The notes under the pieces are model-generated. The model made no database searches. It was not told the origin of the DNA and saw only the letters and a list, made by a program, of their open reading frames with translations. Positions 20,698 to 64,000 of a stretch of DNA of 64,000 nucleotides are shown here, one piece after another. The DNA comes from Cenococcum geophilum. Its lineage: Eukaryota. The stretch spans positions 5,890,001 to 5,954,000 of the forward strand of contig CP158635.1 of NCBI GenBank assembly GCA_050273025.1, given 5' to 3'. The position numbers were made by a program, and so were the translations under genes. Positions within the stretch are counted from its first letter, which is position 1. Each line of letters starts with the position of its first letter.

Positions 20698-20723
<26 letters not shown>
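8943..20723 (+). mobile_element. Tad-like LINE copy B, full length, RIPed; ORF1 with CCHC knuckles (~16255-16430), ORF2 endonuclease-RT (~17000-20470)
   Basis: TSD tatatactaa(t/c)aata at 8928-8942 and 20724-20738, and a (TTA)n tail. RT motifs GIL*GLPLSPILFLFLISNL (GIPQGSPLSP) and GFVND (FVDD). The endonuclease start resembles QYNC. Confidence 0.93.
9420..15606 (+). mobile_element. Ty3/Gypsy chromovirus 1, full length, RIPed; LTRs 9420-9629 and 15397-15606; gag ~9860-11020, pol (PR-RT-RH-IN-chromodomain) ~11020-15080
   Basis: 210-bp LTRs with TG..CA ends (5' copy RIPed), TSD gccac at 9415-9419 and 15607-15611, and a PPT before the 3' LTR. YLDDI at ~12585, RNase H motif NYEVYDKEMLAI, and a chromodomain KGYNPD.TWYPA. 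Confidence 0.95.
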
Positions 20724-33550: not shown

Positions 33551-34084
33551 CTTTTGAAAACGAGAGAGAGATAGCAAAGGGAAATATAATTAGAGAGCGG
33601 ATTTGGAAGATTAAGATGAAAAATAAGTAATGGACAAGCTGAAAGCTGCTCTCCCCATTTAAAGGAGTCACTGATAATATATGTACCGCACGTTCGACAT
33701 CTCCCTCAAACCCTCAACAGGGATGGAACAGAACATATGATAATGCTAGAGGCTATGGTATAAGAGCGTTGGGGAAATACGAGAGCTGAATCGTCGAGAA
33801 TCCAATAGATTCGATCTCTTCCGAGCGCTGTCTGACTTTTCCTAGCAGTTGAAGTGGTGTGTGGAGGTTGTCGAAGTTGTGGAGATTAGGTTGGTTTCTG
33901 GCACGCAGCCGACACAGCACATCCGAAGGGTATGTGGATGCGAGGCGCAGTCTAGAGAGTCGCCTAGCTGAAAAGACCCTTTTTTTTCAAGCCAAAGCAA
34001 TCAACAGGCCCGGCCTCTGATAAGAATTGTATGGTCGAGCTTATTCAGGCTTAAGCTTCTCTTAAGAAAGCTTGTCCTGTAACA

Positions 34085-36135: not shown

Positions 36136-36270
36136 CTATCTATCCGTCCGTCTATACCTACCCGTCTATACCTACCTGTCTATGCCTACCTGTCTATATT
36201 ACCTTGATTCGATCGATCGATTAAATTGTTTATCGTGTTCGCTGGCTGGTCGTTCGAACGGTTGTCGTGT

Positions 36271-36900
36271 GGCTCTGGCGACGGTCATGTGGCGATGACG
36301 ACGGTCGTCTAGCTCTAGCGACGGTCATCTGGCTCCGGCGACGGTCATCCAGCTCTAACGACGGTCGTCCAGCTCTGACGACGGTTGTCCAGCTCTGGCG
36401 ACGGTTATCTGGCTCCGGCGACGGTTGTCCAGCTCTAACGACGGTCGTCCAGCTCTGGCGACGGTTATCTGGCTCCGGTGACGGTCGTTTAGCTCTGACG
36501 ACGGTTGTCTAGCTCTAACAACGGTCGTCTGGCTCTAACGGTCGTCTAGCTCTAGCGACGGTTATCTGGCTCCAGCGACGGTCGTCTAGCTCTGACGACG
36601 GTCGTCTAGCTCTAGCGACGGTTATCTAGCTCCGGCGACGGTTGTCTAGCTCTAACAACGGTTGTCTAGCTCTAACGACGGTTATTTGGCTCTAACGGTC
36701 GTCTAGCTCTAGCGACGGTCATCTGGCTCCGGTGACGGTCGTCCAGCTCTAATAACGGTCGTCCAGCTCTGGCGACGGTCATCTGGCTCTGGCGACGGTC
36801 GTCTAGCTCTGACGACGGTTGTCTAGCTCTAACGGTTATCTAGCTCTAGCGACGGTTGTCTAGCTCCGGCGACGGTCGTCTAGCTCTAGCGACGGTCGTC
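36271..36900. repeat. 20-bp minisatellite acggtcgtccagctctggcg, ~32 units, some 17-bp variants
   Basis: Three units per 60-nt line at 36301-36540; no unique spacers. Confidence 0.95.
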
Positions 36901-37069
36901 TGCTAGCTGTCGTTCTGGTGTCTTCCTAGGTAGGGAGGATATAAGGAAGGGTAAAAAATAAGGTGGCTACCTAGGTGTATATAGGGGGTATACTTGGCAG
37001 AGGTACGTATAGAGGCTATCGGGAATATAGCGGGGACCTAATAGTAGTGTATCGCGCGCATACATAAAG

Positions 37070-37368
37070 GTTTTATATAAAGCTTTATATAGAGCCTTTA
37101 TATATAGAGCTTCGCGCAGAGCCTTATATAGAGCTTTGTATAGAGCTTTATATAGAGCTTTGTATAGAGCTTCGTATAGAGCCCTATATAGAGCCTTATA
37201 TAAAGCCTCTATATATAAAGCTTTATATAAAGCCTTATATAGAGCCTCGTATAAAGCTTTATATAGAGCTTCGCGTAGAGCTTTATATAGAGCTTTGTAT
37301 AGAGCTTTATATAGAGCTTTATATAAAGCCTTGTACAGAGCTTTATATAGAGCCTCGTACAAAGCCTC
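37070..37368. repeat. 12-bp minisatellite agagctttatat, ~25 units
   Basis: Direct periodicity; it generates the KALY/RALY ORF artefacts. Confidence 0.95.
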
Positions 37369-37370
37369 TG

Positions 37371-39896: not shown

Positions 39897-42800
39897 GTAA
39901 CTATTTTTAATCCTCTACTTCCTTATACGTCCAATATTAAGACCTTAAAGCTAATTAAGCCTTTACGGTAGTAACTTTCTTAGCCTCCTTTAAGCCCTCC
40001 TCTACTGCCTTTAATTAATCCTCTATACTAAATAATCGTGTTACGGACGCTTTAAGTACGATATTACGACTACTTAGAGAAAAGTCGAAAGAAGCTAGTT
40101 AGTTAATAAGAGCACAGTCTAGGATGGAGCCGATAGAGCTATGTAACAAAGAATGGTAACCAAGGTCACGTGGGGTGATCCGTATGATCTATAGGATCTA
40201 TGTGATCCGTAACAGAGTATATAGAGCACACGTATATTACGTACAAGAAGGATTTTATAGGAGTACGGTTATGTATTTAAGGACCCTTAGTCCCTACCTA
40301 GATAGTTCCTTCCTTATAGTAATTCTTAGAATACAATTAGAGTTAATCTGTTGGGCAACTACTCTACTAGTTATTATTATTGTGTTAACTTCTATACTGC
40401 ATTTCCTATACACCTAACCCAATAACGAGCCCACCGTAGTTCTTGCTATAAGGTTCTGTTATACAATCACTACCTAGTTACGGTATTAGTATAAAGAGTT
40501 AAATAAAATGCCACCAAAAGCAGCCACCACGACGCCATTAACGGCAGCAACTACTTTAAGATTAGGTAACGATACTAGTATAGTAAACACTAACTTACAG
40601 CAACCTATAACGGTTGGACAATTATAAGAGATAGTTAACTAGTTAATAGAAAACAATATAACGCTAGAAAATAGGATTAACGGGATAGGCGCAGTAAAGG
40701 TTAAGTTACTATTAATTAAAAGATACTTAGGAGAGAAATTGAAGCTTAAAGGATTCCTTATATAAATATACTTTAAGGTAGCACAGGAAGGAGCAAAGCT
40801 AGCAATACCTATAGATTAAATAGCATATGTAGGACTGTTCTTAATAGGAAGGGCACTTAAGTAGTTTAAGCCTTACCTTATAGAGATATAAGCGAATAGT
40901 ATAACAACCACTAACTAAGAGATACGGTTTATATTCTTAAGCTAGAACAGATTTATAGAGCGACTTATATAGATGTTTGGAGACCTAAAGGTAATAACCA
41001 CGGTAGAGAGAAAGCTCCAAAACCTAATATAATAAACCTTAGTAATTAAGTATATAACGCAATTCCAGACGTTAGCGACGCAAGTAAAGTGGAATAATAG
41101 GGCGCTTATGGCATAGTATAAATAGGGACTTAAGGCTAAAGTCTAGGACGCGATTATCCTAATAGAAGATGTAGACACCCTAAGAAAACTAATAGATTAG
41201 GTAATTAAGATTAATAATTAGATCTACTAAAGGGAACAGGCTAAGAAAGGTTAAAATAGAGTTCTATAGTTATATAAGGCGTAAAGCACGTAACGATAGA
41301 AGCCAAGTTAGAAACTATAGTACGGCGCAGAGCCAATAGACCTAAGTAGTACTAAAGAAGCCTATAAAAGACGGAGTAAGAAACTATAGAAACCTAAAGG
41401 ATAAGGATTAAGTAATTAAGAGTCTAAGGAGCAGAGGCTAAATCAGGGATCTTAGCAGTAGAAGATATTTAGGCGGACTCTATAGTAAGAAAGATGGTTT
41501 AAAGAAGGAGCTTATATAAATTGCGGAAAATAGGGTTATTATACTAGAGACTATAGAAGTGGGCAGAGTCACTACGCGGTAAAGGGTATAAGACTAGCAG
41601 ACAATATATACGTATAGAGGGACGATAATATGCTGCGAAAAACAAAAGAATATTTAATTAGAAGTTTTACGTTCTGTTACAACAACACATACCGAATTCA
41701 TAAGGACGCTAAGTACAGCGTAAGCTATTGGCCATAGGAGCCACAACCTATAGGATATAGAGGAACCAACGAACTAGTTCGCAGATCGGACATTGAGGAT
41801 GATAAATTCGACATAGGCGAAACATTTCAAGACAAGATAAGGTAAGCTTAAGGACCTACAATAGACGATAACCGATGGAGCAGAGTAGCGGCTTAGTTTA
41901 GTAATATATAAATGAGCTCGGGACGGAAGTTCCCACAGATATAAGATTCTTAAGACGAGATAAGTAAGATTTAAGACTCTTAAGACGAGATAAGAACACT
42001 AAGTAAGCCTAGTTAGACTAAGGCAGGAGCTAAGCTCAAGATAGGAGTAAGCTTAGGATTAAGGATTTAAAGGGACTAAGAATTTGGAATGCGAATTAGG
42101 ATACCCATAAATAAGAGGTAAGGAGCTTCTTTATAGATTAGAGAATCTGCGGCATAAATAGTAACTAGACTAGGAGACAGATATATAGACCCAGAAGACT
42201 TACTAGTAGAATACGGCGTTTATACTAAAGATCGAAAAATTAATATAAAGATTAAGAAGTAAAAGAGCTTTAAGGATTAAAGCGTAAGGCACAAACCAAA
42301 AGAAACCATAGAAGAATTTAGACAAAGAATTATTGTATAGTAAGAACAGAAACTAGATAAGAGATCTAGTATATTAGGACGTATAAAGGACAGAGCACTA
42401 GTATAAAGAATTACTAATAGGCCTAGGGCAGGCATACTAAAAGCTAAGTAGCTTACTAAACTAGAAGATAAAGAGGATTTAGAAATCCTAACTAGGTTCG
42501 AAGAATGATATATAAAGGGCTGTTATAATATAGCAATGAGAAGATACTTCCTTATAGATAAGCCGTATACACTCTAGCAGCTATACTAAAAGTGGTATAG
42601 GCAGAGGCACAATAATAAGTGGGAAGATTTTTATATATAGCTAGATAAAAAAAGTTATCTAAGACCACCTAATTATAGAAAAGGCTATAACATATATTAA
42701 AGGAGCCTTAATTATAACGTTAAAGGATCTAGAGGAATAATTAGAGGACTAGAGAAGCAAGAGACGCATCTTAATACCTATAAATAAAGTCGCAATGTTT

Positions 42801-43602
42801 AGATTAGCGCGACAAAGGTTTAAACTTAGGGACGAGGATGAGCCAAAAGTTAACCTAAAGCACCTAGCACACCACACGCTGTTATAGATTGCGTGCATGG
42901 ATAATATATACAAGATGCATAAGAATCCAAAAGAAAAGAATCGGAAATACCTTATAAAAATATACTGGATGATAGACGAGCGACAGTACAGGAATGCTAA
43001 ATATATATATAAATAGCATCTAGCAGAGGTTTAGGAGGAAGGAAGCTTAGTACTTTAATTAGGAAGATTCCTTATAGAAGAATACTTAGACGGATAATAG
43101 TAGTGGGAATGCCTAGAAAACACATATCTATAGCATATTAAAGAAAAGAAGCGAACTAGGCATTAGCTAAAGAGTGAGCTAAGTACACAGGGATTAAGCA
43201 GCCAACAGTTAGGAAAAGTAGAGGCCTATAGGACTAAAGGGAGCCAGTAGTAGAGCCTTAGACCCTTAAAGGAATTTAAAAATAATACCTAAATTTACGA
43301 GTTAAATAGTAAGATTAATAGTTTAAAGCGCTAATAGATAGTAGAGTAACGCGGAACTATATTTTACTAGCAGCAGTTAAGAGAATAGGGCTACCTTATA
43401 GATAGAAGGAGCAACTTTACCTATTAGTTATAATTTTAGGAGATCTAATAGCCTATAGAGGAGGGATTATTAATCTTAAAATAGGACCTATTTAAATAAC
43501 TATTAAAGGGAGACAAATTAAGATGTCTTTTAATATCCTACCATTAGGACGGGATAAGGTAGTATTAGGCATACCTTAGTTATAGGAATATAATCTAAGG
43601 AT

Positions 43603-43961
43603 TGTCACGGGACACCCCCGTGACACCTTATACACGTCCACCTGTTTCCACCGACTCAGCAACTAGAGACTGACCACGAGACGGCAATTTGCGGCAATCT
43701 GACGGCAATCTGCCATATTCTGCCATATTCTGCCAAGTTCCACCGAATCCTGCCAAGTTCTGCCAGGACCACCACCTGAATCCTATTCTGCTCCGTGCAC
43801 GTGTTGACCAAGCAACCAAGCTAACGATATATACCCTTTCTTCCCGTTTCCCTGCCTTCTCTCCTTACGCAACGTCTTGACCTTATCACACAGTTCATGT
43901 ATATAGCTTAATAGTATCTACTTTGCTACATATTATCACCGCTTATACTTACTCCGTGACA
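43603..43961. mobile_element. Solo LTR (359 bp) inserted in the protease region of Gypsy 3
   Basis: tgtcacgg...ccgtgaca termini. TSD aggat at 43598-43602 and 43962-43966. Absent from the sister copy (~58260). Confidence 0.93.
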
Positions 43962-46900
43962 AGGATCAATTAGATTACAGGGCAAGTTAATATTAGGGAT
44001 ACTTAACGCTATAAGCAGCAATAATAAGCTAAGTTAGTATAGTACTAAGTAGAAGTAACCTACAAAGAAACAGAAAAAGGACTAAGTTATATACCAAAGA
44101 GATACCATAAGTATAGTAAGAAACTATGGTTACTAAAGAGTAAAAAGCTGTTAGAGTATATAGCATAGGACTATAAGATAGAGTTAGAACCAGGAATAAG
44201 TCTAAAGTTTTTTCTAATCTATAAGCTTACCAAAGAGGAAGGTAGAGCACTAAAAGAGTTTATCCAAGAAAACTTACGGAAGGGATATATTAAACCATTA
44301 TAGTCATTAGCGGGTTATCCAGTACTATTTATACTAAAGAAGAATAGTAAATTAAGACTGTATATTAACTATAAACAGTTAAATAGCATCACTAGGAAGG
44401 ATAGGTATTTTTTACCCTTAATTAGCGAAATCTAAAACAGAATAGGTAACGCGTAAATCTTTATAAAGATAGATCTAAGATAGGCGTACCATTAGATCAG
44501 AATTAAGGAAGGCGATAAGTAGAAGGCAGCCTTTAGGTTAAAGAAAGGACTATATAAGCCATTAGTTATATAATTCGGGCTTATAAACGCACTAGTAATA
44601 TTCTAGAAGCGTATTAACAATATATTAGGGGAATACTTAGATGAATTTATTATAGTATATCTTAACGATATTATTATCTACTTAATAACTAAGGAAGAAT
44701 ACGGGGAATATGTTAAATGGGTTTTAAAGAGACTATAAGAAGAACAGATGCTAGTAGTAATTAAGAAATGCGAGTTCTTTACTAGGAAGACCAATTTTAT
44801 TAGATTTATCATTAAACTAGGCTAACTTAGTATAGATCTAAAGAAATTGGCAAGAACTGGAGAACGTTATATAGTTAAGATCGTTCCTAGGGTTTTGCAA
44901 TTACTATAGAAGGTTTATAGTATAATAGTTAAAGGATATTAAGCCGTTTACGCGATTAATAAAAAAAGAAGAACTATAGGTATAGGGAGAAAAATAAAAA
45001 GAACTCTTTAAGAAAGTTAAGGAGTTGTTTACCCAGGAGCTAGTTTTTAAGATCTATTAACTAGGACTAGAGACGGTTATAGAAACAGATGCATTAGACT
45101 ATATATTAGGGGCATACTTTATATAAAGATATTAGGATAAATAGCACCCAGTAGCATATTATAATTGGAAGATAATACTACTAGAGTTAAACTATAATAT
45201 CTATAATAAGGAGTTGTTAGGTATAGTTATAGCATTAAAGGAATAAAGAGCATTCTTGCAAGGTATAGAAAAACTATTTATAGTTAAGACGGATTATAAG
45301 AACCTAATAGGATTTTTAACAACAAAGGAACTTAACTAAAGATAGGTTAGATAGGCAGAGATGCTTATAGAATACTATTTTAAGATTTAGTATACTAAGG
45401 GTATAGATAATACGCGAGTAGATGCTCTAAGTTATAAGGCTAAACTATAAAGTAATAGAAAGCTATTAGGGGCTCTACTATAAAAAGATATAGATGGATT
45501 AATTAGGTATAATTATTTAAAGATTATAGTAACTTAAGAAGAACTAGATAGAGTTTATAAGTTACTAGAAAGCTTTTAGGTATAAAGGATTTTAGAAGTA
45601 TAGCTAGAAGATCTATAGATGGATATATACGAAAATTAAGAAGTAAAGTATATCCTAAGAAGTATAGTAGAGTAGTTTATAGAGGACTTCTATAAGGGAC
45701 TAACTTAAGGACATAATAGAGCTATAGGCTTAGTATTAAGACTCTAAGAGGAGTATATTATTAATGGAATCTAAAGGATAGCTAGAAGGGTTACTAGAGA
45801 GTGTCTAGATTACTAAAGGAATAAATTAATAAGGTATAAACTATATAGAGGGTTATAACCTATTAAAACACTAGAAAGGCCATAGGAGGTTATATTATAG
45901 GACTTTATTATTAAGTTACTAAAGTTAAGAGATTCTATTACCGGACAAGATTATAATATAATCTTAGTAATAGTAGATAAGCTTATAAAGTGGGGATACT
46001 TTATAGTATGCACAGAAGAAATCTTAGCGGAAGATATTGCTAGAATCTATATTAAAGAAGTGTTCGTAAGATATAGAGCACTAAGTAAGATTATATCGGA
46101 TAGGGATCTAAGATTTATAATAGTATTCTAAGAAGTATTCTTAGCGGAGTAAAGAGTTTAAGTAGCAACTTCTATTATATATTATCCGCAGATAGACGGT
46201 TAAACGGAAAGATTAAATTAGACGTTAGAATAGTATTTAAGGTATTATATTAATTATGCATAAAATAATTAGGTATCGCTATTACTAGTTACGTAGTTTT
46301 TATACAATATAACACCTTAAGAAGGAATAGGCACGTTACTATTTAAGGCAAATTACGGATATAAGCTAAGAATATTGTTATTACTATAGTAAGCGAAGAA
46401 AATAAGTAGCATAGCTAAAGAAAGAATAAAGATATTAATAAATCTTTATATAGACCTTATAGAATTAGTAAAGAAAGTATAAGAGAGAATAAAAAGGTAT
46501 TATAACGCTAAGAGATCTAAGGGACCAGATCTTAAGGAGGGAGATAAAGTATAGCTACTATATAAAAATTTTAAGAGTTAACGACTAAGTAAGAAGTTAA
46601 ACTATGTTAGACTAGGACCTTTTAAAATTACGTAGAGAATTTCACTAGTTATATTTAAGTTAAACCTACTAGCCAGAATAAAAATCTACCCTATATAGTA
46701 TATCGTAATGCTAGAGCCAGTATATAGGAATATTAAGTTACTAGTTTACGAAGTAGACACATATAGAGGATAGGAAGAAGATAAATAGCAAGTTTTAAGA
46801 ATCGTTAGTTATAAGGACATTAACAATAAAATATAGTATAAGGTTAAGTGGATAGGCTATACTAAGACTACCTAGGAACTACTAGAGAATTTAAAGAACG

Positions 46901-46999
46901 CTATAGGAAAGGTATAAGAGTATTAGAGGAGATTAGGTTAGGCAGTATTAATAAAGAAGGATTACTAAAGAATAAGTTACCTAAGGGGGACCTAAGAAG

Positions 47000-47573
47000 A
47001 GCAGCTACTAAAGTACTTAAGTCTGTTTCCTTCTCTATTAGAGGAGAATCCGTTCTTTTATTGCTAAGTTCCTATAAACTTTATTTTATAAGTTTCTATT
47101 CCTTAGAATAAACCTTCTTACGAACCTTCTTAAAACGAATTAGCTAAGCAGACGCCGTAAGACGAGATTTAAGAGCCTATTATTAAGCATTAGCAGCTTC
47201 TTATTTAGCATTATAAGAACGGCATAGTTCCGCTAGAGTAATAGACAGTTTATTATCTAGCTATATAGCAGTAGATTAAATATAAGACCCTAAGATAAAT
47301 TAACTAGGGAACTAGACGGCTATTAAGAGTAATAGGCCGTATATATTTAGTATTAGAGATAGAGCAAACGTTATAGGATAAACGAATATTTACTTTAGTA
47401 TACTCTAAGTAAGAGGATAGTTGTTGTGAAGATAGGTTCGCCAACGTAATATAAACTAACCCCTTTTTTAAATAGTAAGAATATGGAGACAGTATAATCT
47501 CACTAAGAGATAATATTGCAGCAATAGTGCGAGCACGATGGACGGTTAAAGAAGAAGAAATTGCTTTAGGTAT
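47000..47573 (-). pseudogene. Antisense ORF of Gypsy 3: Zn(II)2Cys6-like motif plus coiled coil (RIPed)
   Basis: Six TAT/TAC codons are spaced X2-X6-X13-X2-X8. The sister copy at 54638 retains two of them as TGT/TGC. Confidence 0.6.
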
Positions 47574-48737
47574 AATAAGTAATAATATTAACCAAATTAA
47601 TTAGACGGATATTATACCTCTAGTAAACAACTTAGAGATATTTTAAATCTTTAAGAATAAAGATAAAGAGAAGGGAGATGGTATTACGGACGCTTTAAGT
47701 ACAATATTATAACTACTTAGAGAAGAGTTAGAAGAAGCTAGTTGGTTAATAAGAGCACGGTCTAAGATAGAGCCGATAGAGCTATATAACAAAGAATGGT
47801 AACTAAGGTTACGTAGAGTAATCTATATAATCTATAGAATCTATATAATCCGTAACAGAGTATATAGAGCACACGTATATTATATATAAGAAGGATTTTA
47901 TAGGAGTACGGTTATATATTTAAGGACCCTTAATCCCTACCTAGATAGTTCCTTCCTTATAGTAATTCTTAGAATACAATTAAAGTTAATCTGTTAGGCA
48001 ACTACTCCACTAGTTATTATTATTGTGTCGACTTCTATACTGCATTTCCTATATACCTAGCCTAATAACGAGCCCACCGTAGTTCTTACTACAAGGTTCC
48101 GTTACAAATCGCTAATTAAACCGTTTAACTACCTGTAGCATCTTACGCATCTTATTTAATGTATATAATACGTCCTTTATTATAACCTTAAGCTAATCCT
48201 CCACTAGTTTATTCTTATTAATGTTAGGAACGCGTATAAAGCGTATATATGGTAGAAGTTTAGGGGAAGACTCTAATGGAGGATTTTCCTATATAATTAG
48301 TAGCTAGTTAATGGAAGAATGGTAAGAACGTATAACTGTAACGTTATGTATTATAACTTTTTACTTAACTTCCTTAAATAAAATCTGTGGTCGGTGTTTT
48401 TGGGGTTGCCTTTTATAGTATTTCGTTAGCATTATGATGTTAAGGTGTTTTAGTGGGGCTTGCTAATAAAATTGCGCTAGCTGGGGTGCCTGTAGCATGC
48501 TAACCCAAGCAAAAGCGCCAAAAGCGCCCAATACGAAAAGTGACTTTTGCCACACGAAGGGATAAGGAGGTGCCAAAAGATCCCTTACAGAGAACCAGGG
48601 AGCACTCGCTGCATCAAGCCCAAACGACATAACCAACTAAAAAGACTCCAGAAAATCCCAAAAGAAACCCTGAGTTGCCCGCATCACAGGTGAGTCATAT
48701 AAGAGACGACGCGCGCCTATATAAAATTCGAACCGTT

Positions 48738-49099: not shown

Positions 49100-52000
49100 A
49101 TGTCGCGCCGACTGCGGCGCGAGGAATACACGATAGGATGGGTATGCGCCCTGCCGGTCGAGCTGGCTGCGGCGCAGGAGATGCTCGACGAAGAGCACGA
49201 GGACCTTGAGCGCGACATCAGCGACCACGACGAGAATCTATACTCTCTGGGTTCGGTTGCAGGACACAACGTCGTGCTTGTGTGCCTGCCAGCCGGCCGG
49301 ATCGGCAACAACCCCGCGGCGGCCGTGGCGACACAGATGAGGGCGACGTTCAAGGGGATCCGGTTCGGGCTGATGGTCGGTATCGGAGGAGGCGTTCCAA
49401 GCGCAGAGGTGGACATCCGACTCGGGGACGTGGTGGTCAGCCAACCACACCAGACCTTTGGCGGCGTCGTTCAATACGACCTCGGGAAGGCCACGCCAAG
49501 CGGCTTTGAGCGGACGGGGTCGCTGAACTCTCCGCCGCAGATGCTGCTCGGAGCGGTGGCCAGAGTGCGGGCGAACGAGCTCCGAGGCAGAAGCAAGCTC
49601 TCTAAACACGTCTCCAAGCTCGACCGCATTCCCAAGTTCCAGCACGACAAGACGGGGCCTGATGTTCTCTTCGAGGCAACTTACGACCACGAGGGAGGGC
49701 AGACGTGCAACCTGTGCAACACGGACAGACAAGAGGCTCGGCAACCGCGCGAAAGCGAAGAGGAGGTGGTAGTGCACTACGGGACGATTGCATCGGGGAA
49801 CCAGGTGATAAGGGATGGTCGCACGCGCGATAGGGTGAGCAGGGAGCTTGGCGGCATTCTGTGCTTCGAGATGGAGGCAGCGGGTCTGATGAACAGCTTC
49901 CCCTGCCTCGTAATCCGCGGCATCTGCGACTACGCCGACTCGCACAAGAACAAGAGGTGGCAGGCGTACGCGGCAGGGATGGCGGCGGCATGCGCGAAGG
50001 AAGTGCTGTCGGTGATACCGCCAGCAGATGTGGCGAAGACCTGCACGGTGGAAGAAACAATCAGAGGCTCAAGCAGTTAGTGTAGCAGTCGTCTTGTATT
50101 GAATAGTATGTTAGCACTAATGCCGTGGCAGACCGTGTAACTACATCCACCTACTACATTCCGTTCCCCAGGAATCGATATTTCGTCGGAAGAAGGGCCG
50201 AGCTTAATGTGCTAAAGCGGAAGTTAATAGTGAATCAGGAGTGTCAGAGGATGTCTGTCGTCGGGCTCGGTGGAACCGGTAAGACGCAGATTGTGCTGCA
50301 GTTTGCCTACACGGTAAAAGAGACCTGGCCGGAATTCTCCATCTTCTGGGCGCCCACACTGAGCATGGAGAGCTTTGAGCAGGCATGCGCGGATATCGCA
50401 AGAGCGCTGCACATACCCCAGGCGGCAGGCGGGGAAGAGGACGCGAAAGAGCTAGTAAGGCAGCACTTGAGTGCGGCTCGGGCGGGACGGTGGCTGTTAG
50501 TAGTTGATAACGCCGACGACGCGGAGATTCTCTTCGGCACCGGGCAGTCGAAGGGCATCGTCGACTACCTGCCAGAGAGCGAGGAGGGCGTGGTCGTGTT
50601 CACCACGCGCACACTGGAGGTGGCGGTGTCGCTGACACGCGGCGACGTGATCGAGCTAGGGGCGATGAATCGACAAGACGCCGTCAGCTTCCTAGAGAAG
50701 TCGCTGATCAGGAAGGACCTTGTCCGCGACGATGCGGCCACGACCGAGCTGCTAGACGAGCTGGCATGCCTGCCTTTGGCAATTGCGCAGGCAGCCGCCT
50801 ACCTAAACATGAACAGGATGTCTATTGCGAAGTACTTGCGGCTGCTGCGGAACACGGAGCATGACATTATCGGCCTCATGAGTAGGGAGTTCCGCGACGA
50901 CACGCGATACAAGGGCTCGGCGAACGCAGTGGCAACGACATGGGTGGTGTCGTTCAGCCAGATCCGCGCACGCGATACGGTCGCGGCGGATCTTCTATCG
51001 TTCATGTCCTGCATCGAATGGAAAGCAATACCGCGCTCCATCTTGCCGGGCGTGCAGCCGGAAGAGCGGATGGAGGACGCCATCGGCACGCTCTGTGCTT
51101 ACTCTTTCCTGGTAAAACGTGACGACGAGGACAGGTACGATATCCACAGACTCGTGCACCTGGCGACTAGGGTCTGGATCAGCCAGCACGGCGATATAGC
51201 AGATGAGGTAGAGAAAGCAATCCAACATGTCGTGGAAATCTTCCCGTCTAATGACTACGCGAATCGGGCAGTGTGGAGAGCGTATCTGCCGCATGCACTA
51301 CGACTGCTCGGGGGCAAGGAGGATTGTGATGTTGAAGAGAGGTCTGAGTTGTGTTTGTTAGTGGGACAGTGCTTGCAGGTTGACGGCAGGATCCAAGAAG
51401 CAGTGAAGTGGCTTGAGGAGTGTTGCCAATGGAGGAGTAGGCTTGATGAGAAGGAATCGGGTCGGCTGCTGTCGCAGCACATGCTCGCGATGGCATACGA
51501 AGCAGACGGACAGGTGAAGAAGGCGATGGAGCTGCTAGAGCATATCGTCGCAGTGGAAGCAAAGGTGCTGGCGGAAGAGCACCCTTCTCGACTGGCGTCG
51601 CAGCACGCGCTCGCAGGAGCATACCGAGCGGACGGACAAGTAAAGAAGGCGGTGGAGCTGCTAGAGTATATCGTCGCAGTGGAAGCAAAGGTGCTGGCGG
51701 AAGAGCACCCTTCTCGACTGGCGTCGCAGCACGCGCTCGCAGGAGCATACCAAGCAGACGGACAGGTGAAGAAGGCAGTGGAGCTGCTGGAGCACGTGGT
51801 CGCAGTGCAAGAGGCGCTGGCGGAAGAGCACCCTTCTCGACTGGCGTCGCAGCACGAGCTCGCAGTGGCATACCGAGCAGACGGACAGGTGAAGAAGGCG
51901 GTGGAGCTGCTGGAGCACGTGGTCGCAGTGCAAGAGGCGCTGGCGGAAGAGCACCCTTCTCGACTGGCGTCGCAGCACGCGCTCGCAGTGGCATACCGAG

Positions 52001-52530
52001 CAGACGGACAGGTGAAGAAGGCGGTGGAGCTGCTGGAGCATATCGTCGCAGTGAGAGCGAGGGTGCTAGTGGAAGAGCACCCTGATCAACTGGCGTCGCA
52101 GCACGAGCTCGCAGGGACATACCGAGCAGACGGACAGGTGAAGAAGGCGATGGAGCTGCTGGAGCACGTGGTCGCAGTGCACGAGGCGCTGGCGGAAGAG
52201 CACCCTTCTCGACTGGCGTCGCAGCACGCGCTCGCAGTGGCATACGAAGCAGACGGACAGGTGAAGAAGGCGGTGGATCTGCTGGAGCATATCGTCGCAG
52301 TGGAAGCAAAGGTGCTGGCGGAAGAGCACCCTTCTCGACTGGCGTCGCAGCACGCGCTCGCAGGAGCATACGAAGCAGACGGACAGGTGAAGAAGGCGGT
52401 GGAGCTACTAGAGCACGTGGTCGCAGTGAAAAAGGAGGTCTTTAGAGACGATCATCCTTCGCGACTTATATCACAAGAGGTACTCGAAGATTTATATATA
52501 GAGCTAACCACTAGTCTAGACCTAATATAA
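49100..52530 (+). CDS. Fungal NLR: PNP_UDP (nucleoside phosphorylase-like) - NB-ARC - TPR; join(49100..50075,50132..52530), 1124 aa
   Basis: PNP_UDP motifs YTIGWVCAL, LMVGIGGGVP, FEMEAAG and RGICDYADSHKNKRWQ. Walker A GLGGTGKT, Walker B LLVVDNAD, FTTR, LPLAI, IHRLVH. A 56-bp phase-1 intron gttagt..ctaat..cag joins the two ORFs in frame. Eight 41-42-aa TPRs follow. Confidence 0.95.
51460..52470 (+). repeat. Eight near-identical 123/126-bp TPR-coding tandem repeats
   Basis: Unit SRLASQHxLAxAYxADGQVKKAVELLEHxVAVxxxxLAEEHP. Confidence 0.95.
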
Positions 52531-54103: not shown

Positions 54104-57100
54104 TATAACGGAACCTTATAGCAGGAACTACGATAGGCTCGTTAATAGGCTAGGTGTATAGGAAATGTAAAGATAGTAGTTAACAACGTAATAATAACTA
54201 GTGGAGTGGTTGCCTAATAGATTAACTCTAATTATATTCTAAGAATTACTATAAGGAAGGAACTATCTAGGTAGGGACTAAGGGTCCTTAAATATACAAC
54301 CGTACTCCTATAAAATCCTTCTTATACGTAATATACGTATACTCTATCTACTTTATCGCAGATTATACAAATCCTATAAATTATGCAGATTACCTTACGT
54401 AACCTTAGTTACTATTCCTCGTTATATAGTTCTATCGGCTCTATCCTAGACTATGCTTAAATTAACTAACTAGCTTCTTCCAACTTCTCTCTAAGTAGTT
54501 ATAATATTGTACTTAAAGCGTCCGTAATACTATCTCCCTCCTCTTTATCTTTATTCTTAAAGATTTAAAATATCTCTAAGTTATTTACTAGAGGTATAAT
54601 ATCCATCTAATTAATTTAGTTAATATTGTTACTTATTATACCTAAAGCAATTTCTTCTTCTTTAACCGTTTATCATGCTCGCACTATTACAGTAATATTG
54701 TCTCTTAGTAAGATTATACCGTCTCTATATTCTCGCTGTTTAAAAGAGGGGTTAGTTTATATTATATTAGCGAGTCCATCCTTACGGTAACCATTCTTTT
54801 ATTTAGAGTGCACTAAAGCGAATATTCGTTCGTCTTATAACGTTCGCTTTATCTTTAATGCTAAATATATATAACCTATTATTCTTAATAGTTATCTGGT
54901 TCCCTAATTAATTTATCTTAAGGTCTTATATTTAATCTACTGCTATATAGCTAGATAATAAACTATCTATTACTCTAGCAGAACTGCGCCGTTTTTATAA
55001 TGCTAAATAAGAGGCTGCTAAAGCTTAGTAAAGAGCTCTTAATTCTCGTTTTACTATATCCGCTTAGTTAATCCGTCTTAAGAAGGTTTGTAAGAAGGTT
55101 TATTTTAAGGAGTAGAAACTTATAAAATAAGGTCTATAGGAACTTAGTAATAAAAGAATGGATTCTCTTCTAGCCGAGAAGAAAATAGATCTAAGTAGTT
55201 TAGTAACTGCTCTTCTTAGGTCCCCCTTAGGTAATTCATTCTTTAGTAATTCTTCTTTATTAATACTGCCTAACCTAATCTCTTCTAATACTCCTATACC
55301 TTTCCTATAGCATTCTTTAAATTATTTAGTAGTTCCTAGGTAGTCTTATTATAGCCTATCCACTTAACCTTATACCATATTTTATTGTTAATGTCCTTAT
55401 AACTAACGATCTTTAAAACTTGCTATTTGTCTTCTTCTTATTCTCTATACGTGTCTGCTTTATAAACTAGTGGCTTAATATTCCTATATGCTGGTTTTAG
55501 CATTATAATGTGCTGTATAGGGTAAATTTTTATTTTAGCTAGTAGGTTTAACTTAAATATAACCGGTGAAATCCTTTATATAATTTTAAAAGGTTCTAGT
55601 CTAACATAGTCTAACTTCTTACTTAGTTATTAACTCTTGAAAATTTTATATAGTAGCTATACTTTATCTCCCTCCTTAAGATCTGGTCCCTTAGATCTCT
55701 TAATATTATAGTATTTTTTTATTCTTTTTTATACTCCCTTTATTAATTCTATAAGGTTTATATAAAGATTTATTAACGACTTTATTCTTTCTTTAGCTGT
55801 ACTACTTATTTTCTTTACTTATTATAGTAATAATAATATCCTTAGCTTATATCTATAATTTGCCTTAAATAGTAATATGCCTATTCCTTCTTAAGGTATT
55901 ATATTATATGTAAACTATATAACTAGTAATAGTAATACCTAATTATTCTGCGCATAATTAATATAGTGTCTTAGATATTATTCTAGTGTCTAATTTAATC
56001 TTTCTATTTAACCGTCTGTCTGCGGATAATATACAGTAGAAGTTACTACTCTAACTCCTTATTCCGCTAAGAATACCTCCTAAAATGCTGCTATAAATCT
56101 TGGATCTCTATCCAATATAATCTTGCTTAATGCTCTGTATTTTATAAATACTTCTTTAATATAGATTCTAGCAATATCTTTTACTAATATTTCTTCTATA
56201 TATGCTATAAAGTATCCCCACTTTATAAGCTTATCTACTATTACTAAGATTGCGTTATAATCTTGTCCGGTAATAGGGTCTTTTAACTTTAGTAACTTAA
56301 TAATAAAGTCCTATAATATAACCTCTTATAGTCTTTCTAGTATTTTAATAGGTTATAGCCCTCTATATAGCTTATACCTCGTTAGTTTATTCCTTTAGTA
56401 ATCTAGATATTCTTTTATAACTTTTTATACTAAGCCCTAGATTCCGTTAATGATATACTCCTCCTAGAGTCTTAATACTAAGCTTATAGCTCCGTTATAT
56501 CCTTAAGTTATTCCCTTATAGAAATCTTTTATAAAATGCTCTGCTATGCTTCTTAGGATGTACTTTATTTCTTAATTTTTATATATATCTGTTTATAGAT
56601 CTTCTAGTTATACCTTTAGAATTCTCTGTACCTAAAAGCTTTCTAGTAACTTATAAACTTTTTCTAGTTCTTCCTAGGTTATTATAATTTTTAGATAATT
56701 ATACCTAATTAATCTATTTATGTCTTTTCGCAGTAAAGCCCCTAATGGCTTTTTATTGTTTTATAGTTTAGCCTTTTAACTTAAAGCATCTGCTCGTATA
56801 TTGTCTGTACCCTTAGTATACTAAATCTTAAAATGGTATTCTATAAGTATCTCTGCCTATTTAACCTATCTTTAGTTAAGTTCCTTTATTATTAGGAATC
56901 CTATTAGGTTTTTATAGTCCGTCTTAACTATAAATAGTTTTTCTATACCTTATAAGAATGCTCTTTATTTTTTTAGTGCTGTAATTATACCTAATAACTC
57001 CTTATTATAGATATTATAGTTTAACTCTAGTGGTGTTATCTTCCGACTATAGTACGCCACTAGGTGCTATCTATCTTAATGTTTCTATATAAAGTATGCC

Positions 57101-59855
57101 CTTAGTATAAAGTCTAATATATCCGTTTCTATAACCGTCTCTAGTCCTAGTTAATAGATTTTAAGAACTAGCTCCTAGGTAAACAACCTTTTAACTTCTT
57201 TAAATAATTTCCGCTGTTTATTTCCCCATGTCTATATTTCTTCTTTCTTTATTAATCGCGTAAATAGTTTAATGTTCTTTAACTATTGTGCTATAAACCT
57301 TTTATAGTAATTATAAAATCTTAAAAACGATCTTAACTGTGTAACGTTCTTTAGTTCCTACTAATTTACTATAGCCTTAATTTTCTTTAGATCTATACTA
57401 AGTTGGCCTAGTTTAATAATAAATCCGACGAAATTGGTCTTTCTAGTAAAGAACTCGCATTTTTTAATTGCTACTAGTATCTGTTCTTCTTATAGTCTCT
57501 TTAAAACCCATTTAATATGTTCTCCGTATTCTTCCTTAGTTATTAAGTAGATAATAATAATATTAAGATATACTATAATAAATTAATTTAAGTGTTCTCT
57601 TAATATATTGTTAATACGCTTTTAGAACGTTGCTAGTGCGTTTATAAGCCTAAATTGCATAACTAATGGTTTATATAGTCCTTCCTTTAACCTAAAGGCT
57701 GCCTTTTATTTATTACCTTCCTTAATCCGGATCTAATAGTACGCCTATCTTAGATCTATCTTCGTAAAGATTTACGCATTGCCTATCCTGTCTTAGATTT
57801 CGCTAATTAAGGGTAAAGGATACCTATTCTTTCTGGTGATGCTATTTAACTATCTATAGTTAATATATAGTCTTAGTTTACTATTTTTCTTTAGTATAAA
57901 CAGTACTAGATAACCCGCTAATAATTGCGATAGTCTAATATATCCCTTTTATAGGTTTTCTTAGATAAACTCTTTTAGTGCTCTACCTTCTTCTTTAGTA
58001 AGCTTATAGATTAGAAAGAACCTTAGACTTGTTCCTAGTTCCAATTCTATTTTATAGTCCCATACTATATACTTTAACAGCTTTTTACTCTTTAGTAACT
58101 ATAGTTTCTTACTGTACTTATAATATCTTTTTGGTATATAACTTAAGCCTCGCTTAGTCTCTTTATATATTGCTCTAACTTAGTACTATACTAATTTAGT
58201 TTATTATTGTATTTTGCGGCGTTAAGTATCCCTAATATCGACCTAACCTATAATCTAATTAATCTTTAGATTATATTTCTATAACTAAGGTATTCCTAGT
58301 ACTGCCTTGTTATTTCCTAATAGTAATACATTAAAAGACATCTTAATTTATCTTCCTTTAATGGTTAACTAAATAGGTCCTATTTTAAGGTTAATAATCC
58401 CTCCTCTATAGGTTATTAGATCTCCTAAAATCGTCACTAATAGGTAAGGACACTCCTTTTGCCTATGTAGTAACCCTATTCTTTTAACTGCTACTAGTGA
58501 GATATGGTTCCTTATTGCTCTACTATTTATTAATGCTTTAAACTGTTAATCTTGCCACTTAACTCGTAAATTTAGGTGTTGTCCTTAAATTCCTTTAAGG
58601 GTTTAAGGCTTTACTACTAGTTCCCTCTAGTCCTATAGGCCTCTACTTTTCCTAACTATTAACTACTTAATCCTATTTATACTTAGTCCAACTTAAGCTA
58701 ATACTTAGTTCGCTTTTTATCTTTAATATGCTATAGATACGTGTTCTTTAGGCATTCCTACCACTATTGTCCATCTAGGCATTCTTCTATAAGGAATCTT
58801 CTAGGTTAAAGTATTAAGTCCCCTTATTCTTAAACTTCTATAGGGTGCCAACTATACATATACCTAGCGTTTTAATATTTCGCCTTATCTAATAACCAGT
58901 GTATCCTTATTAAGTACTTCCGGTTTTTATTTTTTAGTGCTCTATATATATTACACGCATTATCTACATACGCTATCTATACCAATATGTAATGTGCTTA
59001 GTGTTTTAGGTTAACTCTTGGTTTGTTTTTATCCTTAAGTTTAAACCTTTCTTGTACTAGTCTAAGCGTTACAACTTTATTCGCAGGTACTAAGATTTAT
59101 CTTTTACTTCTCTAGTCCTCTAATCGCTCCTTTAGATCCTTTAATATTATAATTAAGGCTCCTTTAATATAACTTATAGCTTTCTCTATAATTAGGTGGT
59201 TTTAGACAACTTTTTCATCCAACTATATATAGAAATCTTCCTACTTATTATTGTGTTGTTGCCTATACCACTTTTAGTATAGCTGCTGGAGTATATATAG
59301 CTTATCCGTTAGGAAGTATCTTCTTATTACTGTATTATAATAGCCCTTTATATATTGTTCTTTAAACCTAGTTAGGATCCCTAGATCCTCTTCTTATTCC
59401 AGTTTAGTAAGCTACTTAGCTCTTAGTATGCCTGCTCTAGGCCTATTAGTGATTTTTTGTACTAGTGCTCTGTCTTTTATACGACCTAGTGTGCTAGATC
59501 TTTTGTCTAGTTTCTGTTCTTGCTATAAGGTAATTCTTACTCTAAATTCCTCTATGGTTTCTTTCTTTTCGCGTCTTATAAGTGGATCCTTAAAGTTATC
59601 TTGCTTTTTAATTCTAGTATTAATTTTCCGATCTTTAGGCCGAATACTATATTCTCCTAGTAAGTCCTCTAGGTTTATATATCTGTCTCCTAATCTAACT
59701 GCTATTTATGCTGCAGATTCTCTAATCTATAAAGAAGCCTCTTGCCTCTTCTTTATAGATGTCTTTATTTAAACTCCAAATTCTTAATCCCTTGGATTCT
59801 TTAATCCTAAGCTTGCTTCCATCTTAAGCTTAGCTCCAGCCTTAGTCTAACTAGG
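54104..59855 (-). mobile_element. Ty3/Gypsy 5 (same family as Gypsy 3): 3' LTR 54104-54529, antisense ORF, pol, part of gag extension; interrupted by Gypsy 6
   Basis: Reverse complement of ~42008-48106, lacking the solo LTR. Confidence 0.93.
54638..55200 (+). pseudogene. Antisense ORF of Gypsy 5: Zn(II)2Cys6-like motif plus coiled coil (RIPed, probably with an intron)
   Basis: Reads PSLYSRCLKEGLVYIILASPSLR*PFFYLECTKANIRSSY; de-RIP gives PCSRCSKEGLVC...CSECTKANIRSSC. Confidence 0.65.
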
Positions 59856-62800
59856 TGTCACGGAACCCCACCGCAGGGGCCTCCATAGGAGAGCCCCGTG
59901 CTCTCGCGTACACCTCGCGTACAGCTTATGTCAGCTACGCGTAGGTATATCACCTCCTTACGCCCTTAACCCTTACGATCGATCGCGTAACGTCTTATAG
60001 ACTCCTTAAATACATACGTCTTGTAGCCACTGCCCCGTCCCATGACATTACGTTGCGCCTTTTTACTACCGACACCTAGCCTATAACCAATTCTACGTCT
60101 CTGCAATACTATAGGCGCTGCTAGAAGCAGCGTGCCTATAAGTTACCTTACTTTATACTTTTAAGGAACCTATAATAGTAAGATAATATTTCTTACTAGC
60201 CATTATATTAAACCTAAAGAACAATCTAATACCTATACTCAACCTACGACGCCAATTAATCCCAGGAGAATTCGATTTATTAGCCCTAGCCTTAACCCCT
60301 AAGGAGATAGACACCAATAATGTCTTATCTTTTATTAACTACACAACTACGGACAAGTAAGTGGAAGGGCTACTACCTATTAAAATTAAAATATGAGACG
60401 CTAAGATGTTCGCAAAAATGGTAGCACGAGAACCCGATAAATACTACCGCCTTCTATAGAACTACTACCTAAAGCTTATATAAGCCGAGATGCGTACTAC
60501 TTAAGATTGCGATATTATCTAAGACCTACAAGCTCGCGAGGCGCTTGCTAATAACACGCGTTAAGAAACCAAAGACGACCTCTGTGTGTCTGAACGCGAC
60601 GTCTAATAGTTAAAGAAGGCTAAGATTGCACTTATTGCTACGGTTACTAAAAGAGAAGGCATAATTAAATACCTATAATCTTAGCTTAACGAGCATATTT
60701 GTAACAACGCTAGACACCTCTTTACTGCATATAACGCCACTTAAGTCTCTATACCCTTGGTAACTTTACCTACTTAACGCTTAATAGAGGGTTAGCGCTA
60801 AGCAGCCTTACCTAATAGGAACCCCTACTAAAGTAATAACAAAAGCTATAACGACTAAACCTAAGCTGCTACTATAGGGTCTAATATATGTTACCTTAAT
60901 CCCCTAGTTTTTTAGGGAGACCGTAAAGAATATAGCTACTAAAAGATGCAAATCTACAAGAAACTAACTTAGAGCGCCTACCTTTTTCCTACGGAAGATA
61001 CTAAGATTGGCTATATTATTGGGCGAATAAAGGGTACACCGTTTAATAGACTCTTTGCCTAATAGAAAACTAATAGCCCCTAGAAGTGGCAGTCCCACTA
61101 AGAAGTCCTTAATGATCTTAACCTAATGTACCGTAACTATAACCTACTAGCTACCAACTAAGCTAAACTATATACCCTAAAGATAAGCCCTACTAAATTA
61201 TTTAACAAGTTTTATGTTAAATTCTAGGAATATACTAAAGCCCTTGCCTGAGATAATACTAAAGACTAGAAAGATCTCCTTAAAAAAGTTACTTATTGCC
61301 TTAGTTACGCAGCCGCTAGCTACAACTATAATAATGTTTATAATATGGTAGCAGCTATACGGAAGATTAAACAACGACTAAATTAGATCGCTACTATAAA
61401 CCCCTACCTAAAGACCTCCCTATAGAAGCCCTCTGGACCTACTAAACTACTAACGCCCACTACTTTAAGTAATACTACTGGTCCTAATATTAACCTTTTT
61501 ATACTAACCTTCCTGTAGAAGCTACTAGATAGAGAATGCGAGCTACTCTAGAAGCTAAAGCGTTGCTATAGATGTTGTTAAGAAGGCTATTATAGCTATA
61601 GCCTAAACTACCTAATAGCTAGGTTTAGCAGCTGCCGCCTAATACCTAACCTAGTACCTTAAATACTAAATACATTACTATATGCTACTACCATACAAGA
61701 TAAAGACGTAGTAATAGCAGTAGAGTTAGATATGGAAACGGAAAACGCCAAGTCTTAGCCCTAAGTCGTAGGTTAGGATGCCCTAATAATAAGGGGATCT
61801 ATATATCGGCCTGCTTAATAAATAACTTAGTAAAGATAAATAGACAGAAATAGATAGTTTTACCTATAATAGGAACTACTGCCAAAAAACAATATAAAAG
61901 CCGTTCTATAATTGATTATAAAACTACTAATAAATTTATAGATACCTAATTTGTGTGTACTTATAATCTACTTACCTTACCCCTTACTAAAGCCCGCGCC
62001 CTATAACTCGCCGATAGTAGTTGTACCGTATAGAAGATTACCTATATAGTATAACTCCACCTAGATATAAATAGGCACCAGGAAGAACTCTGGGCCTATA
62101 TTATACTACTTACTAACTACTCTATTATCCTTAGAATAAACTAGCTTAAATAATACAACCCCGCCATTAACTAGAAAAAGAGAGAAGTAACCTTTAACTT
62201 TAAATACTATAGAGAGACCTGCCTAGGATATGGCCTAGCCGCCTCTATTTACTCCCTAGGATACTAACCTAAGGAACCCCTTATTACCCTACCTATAACC
62301 AACTACTACTATATAAGTGCTACGGCCTTCTACCGCATAGTATATAGAAAAGGCTGGACTGTTACTATAGCCTCCTAATTACAACTATATAAGCTTAATA
62401 AAGAATAGGACTACGTCCTCTATAGTAATAGGATAGATATAGTCGACCTTTTAGAAAATAATGCCCCCGCAAAACTCTACGGACTTTTACCTTTAGACTT
62501 TAAGAAGTTTATAAAGCTTAAAAAAGGACTTACCAACGAGGAACTCCGCAAGCTCCTCCCTAAGAGGTACTATGACTTTATTAACGTATGCTTATAAAAG
62601 AGCGTAGATATACTCCCCCTATATTAACCTAATAACTATGCCATTAATATTAAATAAGGAAAAACGCTACCCTATAAGAGACCCTACCTAATATTAAAAG
62701 ACGAACTTCTAGTTGTTAAAAAGTATATTAACAAACACCTTAATAAAGGGTTTATTCGCCCTAGCATGTCCCTAGTAGCCGCCCCTATCCTCCTTACTAA

Positions 62801-64000
62801 GAAGCTAAGAGGAGGTATTTAATTCTACGTTAATTATAGAGGACTTAACGCTATTATAATTAAGAACCAATACCCCGTACTACTTATATATAAGACTTTT
62901 AAGCGGCTTAGCCAAGCCAAAATCTATACTAAGCTTAATATTATTGCCGCCTTTAACCGCCTCTAAATATAAGAAGGTAATAAATAGAAAACTATATTTG
63001 CATCGCGCTTTAGCTAATTCGAATATACCGTTATACCCTTTGGCGTATATAACGGCCTAGGCAGCTTCCAAAGCTATATTAATAACGCCTTATAGGACTA
63101 CCTTAATAACTTCTGCTCTGCGTACCTGGACAATATACTTATTTATAGTAATAACCCTTCTAAGTATACTGAGCACGTTTAAAAGGTCCTATAGCGCCTT
63201 AGGGACGCAGGACTTTATATTAATTTAAAGAAGTGCGAATTCTTAGTTATAGAAGTAAAATACCTTAAACTAATTGTTACTACTAAGGGTGTCCGTATAG
63301 ACCCTAAGAAGGTATATATAATTACTAAATAGTAAACCCCTAACTATATTAAAGACGTATAAGCTTTCCTTAGTTTTGCTAACTTCTATTAAAAATTTAT
63401 ATATAACTTCTTGGGTGTTATAGTACTACTTATAGTAATAATGCGAACGAAGGGCCTTTCCGCGAAAGGAAGAAAAATATATTTATATTTTATCTAGACG
63501 CTTAAATGCGAGAAGGCATTCTAAGACCTTAAAGATACTTTTACTAAAGCACCTATCCTAGCTTACTTTATACTAGGACGACAACTTTATTTTAAGACTA
63601 ACTCCTTAGACCATATTAACGTAGGCGTCCTTTTCTAGATAGGTGACGACGGTCTCCTCTACCTAGTCGCATTCTATTCGTCTAAGCTTATACTATAAAA
63701 ATATAACTATAAGATCTATAATAAGGAACTTCTTACGATTATATAAGCGTTTAAGGAATTCCGACCGGAACTTTCCTTAGTAAAACCTAACTAGCTAACT
63801 AAAGTCCTTACGGATTATTGCAACCTTAAGTACTTTATAACTATAAAATAGCTAAACTAACGCTAAGTACGCTAGAACGAGTTCCTCTCTGGTTTTAACT
63901 TTAAAATTATATATAGGCTAGGAGTATAAGGTACTAAGCCTAATAGCCTAATACGCCGCTTATAAGACCTTCCTTAGTCTAAAGATAACCCCTATAACTA
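59856..64000 (+). mobile_element. Ty3/Gypsy 6, RIPed: 5' LTR 59856-60047, gag ~60200-61758, pol (PR, RT, RNase H) truncated by the window end
   Basis: tgtca...tgaca LTR, CCHC knuckle relic at ~61560, RT motif CSAYLDNI at ~63115, RNase H motif YKIYNKELLTI at ~63710. Confidence 0.92.

Follow-up and report, generated by a model that had tools for sequence, protein, structure and literature searches.

RESULTS

The window and its two retrotransposon copies

The window, by which we mean the whole 64,000-nucleotide stretch of Cenococcum geophilum DNA that was analysed (contig CP158635.1, from a genome of 178 Mb in 7 contigs), is mostly AT-rich, with a TpA/ApT of 1.4–2.4 and depletion of CpA/TpG, the signature of repeat-induced point mutation (RIP). 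The stretches 47000–47573 and 54638–55200 belong to two copies, B and A respectively, of one Ty3/Gypsy family, between which about 1.3 kb of sequence shows 143 transitions and 18 transversions. Element B occupies 40035–48104 (+), with gag and pol between LTRs at 40035–40461 and 47678–48104 whose 428 positions show 41 transitions and 1 transversion, and has a short insertion near 43600–43960. Element A lies on the minus strand; in order of rising coordinates, its 428 bp 3' LTR (54106–54533; 86–87% identical by blastn to both LTRs of element B) is followed by a purine-rich tract at 54534–54556, which we take to be the polypurine tract, a RIP-damaged pol core (55311–58704) with protease, reverse transcriptase, RNase H, integrase and chromodomain, and the 3' part of gag (58620–59612); its 5' gag part and 5' LTR are absent from the window. 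The whole pol of an intact metagenome relative, L092, aligns by tblastn to 58704–54415. In Pfam searches RVT_1, RNase H and SH3_Tf2-1 domains fell on the strand opposite the antisense gene in both copies, and the LTRs, gag, the order PR-RT-RH-IN and the chromodomain at the integrase end, read from intact L092 and the window copies, place the family among the Ty3/Gypsy chromoviruses. The family has multiplied strongly in this genome: a first look returned 2917 and 3005 candidates, figures that are not copy numbers.

The window holds other features besides these elements. A GC-rich and apparently intact fungal NLR-type gene, with PNP_UDP_1 and NB-ARC domains and TPR repeats of about 126 bp, lies between the two copies at 49100–52530 (+); the two ORFs seen there probably belong to a single gene as its exons. 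Distant Gypsy pol remnants, with 29–38% identity to the L092 pol, are found at 12070–14958 (+), 25020–27722 (−) and 62526–63959 (+), and another repeat family forms a 4.6 kb inverted pair (4371–8937 and 16148–20714; 91% identity). A small ORF in an un-RIPped island at 33275–33577 (−), with a hydrophobic N-terminus and a few Cys residues, gave no Pfam match and may be an exon of a secreted protein; tandem and simple repeats lie at 36258–36900 and 37060–37369.

Structure of the antisense gene

The original prediction was that both copies hold an ORF antisense to pol. In copy A, exon 1 (54638–54866, +) encodes a basic N-terminal stretch (11 K+R against 6 D+E over the exon) and a six-Cys module at 54728–54838, and is separated by a 55-nt intron with damaged splice signals (54867–54921) from exon 2 (54922–55310), which encodes a long amphipathic helix and then a Ser/Pro/acidic tail ending at a stop at 55308. 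The corresponding parts of copy B are exon 1 at 47345–47573, with Tyr at all six sites, the intron at 47290–47344 and exon 2 at 46901–47289, all on the minus strand. The antisense orientation was thus borne out, but the open frame was not, since both window copies are broken: they are dead elements in which the start codon, the splice donor, the Cys codons and both frames have been damaged by RIP-type mutation. The ATG at 54638 survives in just 1 of 57 genome copies. The antisense start lies about 105–110 nt from the edge of the 3' LTR.

The gene is open in two intact metagenome elements, L092 and L093, each of which has the ATG, Cys at all six sites, a 55-nt GT-AG intron that starts a few codons past the sixth Cys, and an open exon 2; the L092 product is 197 aa long. 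The intron suspected in the original prediction is therefore present, and its length was 55 nt in all 67 measurable metagenome loci. Its ends read GT in 1/57 and TAG in 49/57 genome copies, and GT in 17, AT in 50 and TAG in 66 of the 69 metagenome loci (of 79) that passed the filter for this tally. A database protein (P0009) carries the six-Cys module and the helix, i.e. the products of both exons, in a single chain. From these sequence features we infer that the transcript is spliced across the 55-nt intron. The helix stretch LAELRR..LIRLKKV that had been predicted lies in exon 2. In damaged metagenome copies exon 1 had 35 frame-shifting and 68 in-frame gaps, and exon 2 had 23 and 162, respectively; these counts, like those of stop classes in the same copies, proved too noisy to draw on.

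The six Cys sites and their conservation

The six codons begin at 54728, 54737, 54758, 54800, 54809 and 54836 (+), giving exactly the predicted spacing C-X2-C-X6-C-X13-C-X2-C-X8-C, and the same spacing holds at 47483–47373 (−) in copy B. In copy A the sites read Tyr, Cys, Tyr, Tyr, Cys, Tyr, in agreement with the claim that two Cys remain in one copy and that the others have become Tyr; in copy B all are Tyr. When 57 distinct genome copies were compared (60 loci picked by match to this region, less 3 duplicates), all 342 codons at the six sites were Cys or Tyr, with Cys in 11, 36, 3, 18, 44 and 14 copies, so that each site is Cys in at least 3. Columns holding only Cys and Tyr also occurred elsewhere, in all three frames, in the same RIP-damaged DNA, and on their own these columns are therefore weak evidence. 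The plain majority was Tyr at four of the six sites, yet L092 and L093, sought among less damaged relatives because of this ambiguity under RIP, have Cys at 6/6, and it is these undamaged relatives that decide for the six-Cys reading. One genome copy, L061, also keeps six Cys, with one stop in exon 1, and the 2-6-13-2-8 spacing is common to L092, L093 and L061. This copy has an insertion of about 3.1 kb (its positions 5900–9020) with ORF fragments that by eye resemble a DNA transposase. A pattern search of the genome for the Cys spacing gave 56 matches, of which, by eye, 1 was in the family and the others were mostly simple repeats.

The metagenome relatives were collected with the helix exon as query; 80 of 141 were kept; they come from four assemblies, one of which supplied 71. 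Pol lay opposite and downstream of the antisense gene in 80/80 of these loci and exon 1 lay upstream of the helix exon in 76/80, so that the placement of the gene is constant; of the four misses, three loci start too near the match and in one another copy was picked. Three of the loci have escaped damage and show long open frames for both gag and pol: L092, L093 and L142, the last without exon 1. The ends of the L093 contig (1–126 and 7385–7510) overlap exactly, and it has one LTR and a pol split over its ends; it is an intact element whose assembly is collapsed or circular.

A search of a protein library with exon 1 gave 75 matches at E≤0.001, 58 of them with the six Cys/Tyr sites, and the six Cys are kept in relatives at about 35–45% identity. 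By eye, most of the 75 look like RIP-damaged repeat copies. An undamaged distant protein (P0077, residues 153–211) has the 2-6-13-2-8 spacing and a Lys at the base-reading position. Word-based homologue searches of longer proteins (134–2000 aa, and 320–2000 aa, which excludes the expected length of about 200 aa) returned none, and a sequence search of the PDB returned no solved relative. Atlas matches all scored below 0.9 and fell in Ascomycota clusters; they serve as leads only. Within the window, an exon-1 profile found only copies A and B (next best match, E 2), and the other Gypsy family there has no homologue detectable with this profile.

Nesting of the gene in an open pol tail

The original prediction had placed the ORF between integrase and the 3' LTR. 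Its position proved to be different: the gene is nested within a C-terminal tail of pol that stays open through it and into the LTR in 3/3 intact elements (in L142, as far as the sequence reaches). In L092 the chromodomain lies at residues 1092–1140 of a 1420 aa pol, and the frame continues open for a further 280 codons. The equivalent tail of element A (54412–55307, −), about 280 codons with RIP-type stops, spans the whole antisense gene and runs on across the polypurine tract, which also encodes an acidic EEEGDG stretch of the tail, to a natural end at 54409–54411 (−), about 40 codons inside the 3' LTR, where a stop is found in 56/56 copies and at the position of the intact L092 pol stop. 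At most of the pol-frame stop sites from the chromodomain to 54409, some genome copies have a sense codon instead. Three pol-tail sites are stops in 57/57 genome copies, but so is one site in antisense exon 2; under RIP, a stop fixed in all copies is therefore no proof of a true stop.

The frame under selection was examined with the three intact elements, L142 lacking exon 1 and both comparisons sharing L092. Exon 2 substitutions were concentrated at the antisense third position (29/7/5 by position for L093 and 42/9/12 for L142), and dN/dS for this exon was 0.14 (L093) and 0.09 (L142) in the antisense frame; the corresponding pol-frame values were 2.87 and 2.08. Because the two frames do not share third positions in exon 2, these values indicate that it is the antisense protein that is selected there and that the overlapping pol-tail residues are not. 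In exon 1 third positions are shared, so its dN/dS of 0.06 (antisense frame) and 0.20 (pol frame) cannot be assigned to one frame. For comparison, the pol core gave 0.09, and the last 75 codons of the pol tail, 5' of the antisense start, were moderately conserved (0.29).

Over the 525 overlapping codons the tail itself had no stop, while an equal number of phase-matched control triplets had 10; stops on the opposite strand of the pol core run at 3–6%. The numbers expected without constraint were 5.0 and 4.1, for which the probability of finding none is 0.007 and 0.017 under a rough model in which the two values are not independent. Absence of stops together with drifting residues suggests that the pol frame is kept open for its own sake. 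The tail appears to be stop-free mainly so that translation ends near the 3' end of the RNA, sparing the genomic RNA a long 3' UTR and nonsense-mediated decay; alternatively it may form a functional acidic end of pol, in keeping with the dN/dS of 0.29 in its last 75 codons.

Affinities of the predicted protein

The Cys spacing 2-6-13-2-8 falls within the extended zinc-cluster signature CX2CX6CX5-24CX2CX6-9C given in the accessible text of PMC11534201. According to the accessible text of PMC6265462, canonical factors of this kind recognise CGG through Lys18 in Gal4, or through a His, Lys or Asn in the same role, and a coiled coil further along the chain joins them into dimers. Pfam gave nothing for the window copies of the gene, where damage hides the signal. 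Outside the window copies the best match was DUF3716 (PF12511), which covered the whole module (E 6e-4 and 0.0017; 20.1 and 18.6 bits over profile positions 3–59 and 4–59 of 59; gathering score 22), whereas PF00172 (Zn_clus) reached 14.9, 17.0 and 15.6 bits against a gathering score of 21, with E values of 0.029 and 0.0063 and only half of the motif matched. The position of Gal4 Lys18 corresponds here, we presume, to the residue four after the second Cys; on this mapping it is Gly in 57/57 genome copies and 41/58 relatives, and Lys or Arg in 13/58. The Zn(II)2Cys6 reading of the original prediction thus holds for the spacing, which fits the consensus, but family membership is weakened by the PF00172 scores, the higher-scoring DUF3716 match and the Gly at the base-reading position. 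On its sequence the protein appears to be laid out like a minimal zinc-cluster factor, and we do not file it as a member of that family.

Structure prediction was of uneven help. The AlphaFold model of exon 1 was too poor to use (mean pLDDT 55.8, with much of the module under 50), but the exon-2 helix modelled as a homodimer with a score of 0.48 against 0.01 for the best control, 100% agreement of contacts and pLDDT of at least 81, and so passed a mark that was reached by 21/30 solved pairs and 0/23 single chains from microbes and by 17/29 solved pairs and 0/30 single chains from eukaryotes; resemblance to coiled coils of solved structure may account for this pass. In the model the two helices run antiparallel (pairs 25–42 and 10–52), so that the zinc modules would sit at either end of the dimer. 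The coiled coil of Gal4, by comparison, is parallel. We also considered a CGG-N12-CCG pair in the LTR of L093, intact in 23/57 copies, as a sign of the target and rejected it, because 61% of 2000 shuffled LTRs hold some such CGG pair.

DISCUSSION

We have identified, on the strand opposite pol in a family of fungal chromoviruses, a gene that is almost certainly real and under selection. It consists of two exons parted by a 55-nt intron, encodes six Cys residues in a fixed spacing, is selected at the level of its protein and is nested in an open pol tail. Extra genes of this orientation have precedents. The gene brtn was reportedly described by Zhao et al. 2011 (Virology 417:248). As cited in the accessible text of PMC8365987 and PMC7264820, brtn is the antisense gene of the Boty-like (BcGypsy1) elements of Botrytis cinerea and Sclerotinia, and it resembles our gene in being an extra gene with no known function that a fungal Ty3/Gypsy element carries at its 3' end on the strand opposite gag-pol. 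The two differ in that brtn is classed between pol and the 3' LTR, and a six-Cys module goes unmentioned in the accessible text of the citing papers; the likeness is drawn from published descriptions. Plant genes of the aORF-3R type (Grande, RIRE2, Retand and PvRetro13) are likewise conserved antisense ORFs at the 3' end of Gypsy elements, present in most copies of a family, but they belong to plant elements and, in the accessible text of PMC7264820, are described as lying between pol and LTR and without mention of zinc; here too the comparison is by description. The same source, as far as accessible, notes that such antisense extra genes have long been on record in LTR retrotransposons, with no known function. 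In our family a conserved 3' antisense ORF was present in most copies (57/57 genome copies, which were picked by match to the region, and 76/80 metagenome loci), but it does not lie between a pol stop and the 3' LTR, as the pol frame enters the LTR. The gene is thus of the brtn/aORF-3R kind by position and orientation, much as the original prediction had suggested in likening it to Boty-like elements, and on its sequence features it is best read as a gene of this kind encoding a putative zinc-binding dimeric regulator. In the literature searched, which lay mostly outside the subscription journals, we found nothing on a six-Cys antisense gene or on its nesting in pol beyond brtn and the plant aORFs, and PMC3248453 mentions neither antisense nor zinc.

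Our current working hypothesis, which we hold as a little short of an even chance, is that an antisense transcript from the side of the 3' LTR encodes a protein that dimerises, binds zinc and influences transcription of the element itself. Under this hypothesis the chromodomain-bearing family would encode a third, accessory protein of about 200 aa opposite pol; its transcript would be driven by an antisense promoter in or beside the 3' LTR, and we infer that in element A this LTR was its site. The six Cys would bind zinc within a fold resembling a binuclear cluster (DUF3716-like), the exon-2 helix would pair to form the homodimer, and the dimer would bind DNA or chromatin at the element's LTRs and tune transcription in trans, the short acidic/hydrophobic tail acting as effector. 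The target would probably be something other than the canonical Gal4 CGG pair. Like Gal4, Ppr1 and Put3 (PF00172), the protein has a Cys spacing within the extended signature and, after the module, a helix that models as a homodimer; it differs from them in falling below the Pfam cut-off, in the Gly at the Lys18 position, in its 13-residue loop, in its length of about 200 aa without a large regulatory region, in the antiparallel form of the modelled dimer and in being encoded by a retrotransposon. Of the original prediction of an element-encoded DNA-binding regulator, the element-encoded, spliced and selected antisense gene has stood, and Gal4-type membership has been weakened.

A different function for the six-Cys module has to be weighed seriously, although we think it doubtful: that it is a DUF3716-type protein-binding zinc domain, and the dimer an adaptor that works against host silencing or escapes it, or else changes host physiology, with no reading of DNA sequence. 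DUF3716 is the Pfam family that best matches the module from end to end, and an Atlas match at 0.78 (28% of members), to be taken only as a lead, also points to it. It is found, moreover, in REP9-1 and REP9-2, two accessory genes of the Zymoseptoria class II transposon REP9, one of which affects pycnidia formation (accessible text of PMC8232023). The parallel with these transposon accessory genes is drawn through the Pfam profile, where our score of 20.1 is below the cut-off of 22, and REP9 is a DNA transposon. The Gly at the base-reading position and the antiparallel dimer model would also suit an adaptor. Cys spacing followed by a dimer helix is, however, the Zn2Cys6 layout (accessible text of PMC6265462), and the basic stretch that precedes the module and the Lys or Arg kept at the key position in 13/58 relatives likewise speak against an adaptor.

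It is less probable, and on balance unlikely, that the product serves the replication cycle itself, in particle assembly, RNA export, as an integration cofactor or in copy-number control, where the pol tail might also take part. The gene is tied strictly to a single lineage of elements and to one position in them, which is consistent with such a role, as are the moderate conservation of that part of the pol tail which lies 5' to the antisense start (dN/dS 0.29) and the reading of aORF-3R conservation as a sign of a part in retrotransposition (accessible text of PMC7264820), but the domain layout is, from general knowledge, closer to that of nuclear regulators than to that of particle proteins. 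That the gene is a fragment of a host transcription factor, captured and passively carried, is very improbable: the zinc-cluster-like spacing would fit, but dN/dS values of 0.06–0.14 are as low as that of the pol core (0.09), and the repeat-like look of most of the 75 protein matches and the empty searches of longer proteins (134–2000 and 320–2000 aa) add weak evidence against it. Scarcely credible is the view of the ORF as a by-product of selection on the pol tail, which draws on the openness of pol across the gene and the third positions shared in exon 1 but is largely refuted by the exon-2 result, where selection follows the antisense frame and not pol, and is further opposed by the conserved splice signals and the persistence of six Cys at about 35–45% identity. 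These last two explanations are nearly excluded.

To return to self-regulation, a fuller version of it, which we advance only tentatively, is that with this gene one lineage of fungal chromoviruses encodes a zinc-cluster-derived transcription regulator of its own, spliced, antisense and lying wholly within a pol tail whose only reason for staying open is that a long 3' UTR is thereby avoided. If so, it would be to retrotransposons what antisense regulators are to retroviruses, and would feed back on the LTR in a closed loop, and its antiparallel dimer would represent a mode of reading DNA unlike that of Gal4. The overlap offers a clean natural case of dual coding in which a frame is held open without amino-acid constraint, since pol runs for 280 codons free of stops although its dN/dS exceeds 2 where it overlaps exon 2. 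The existence of intact natural versions with a recognisable architecture makes zinc binding, the DNA target and the effect on the LTR directly testable, and a self-encoded regulator would bear on how expansions like that of this family come about.
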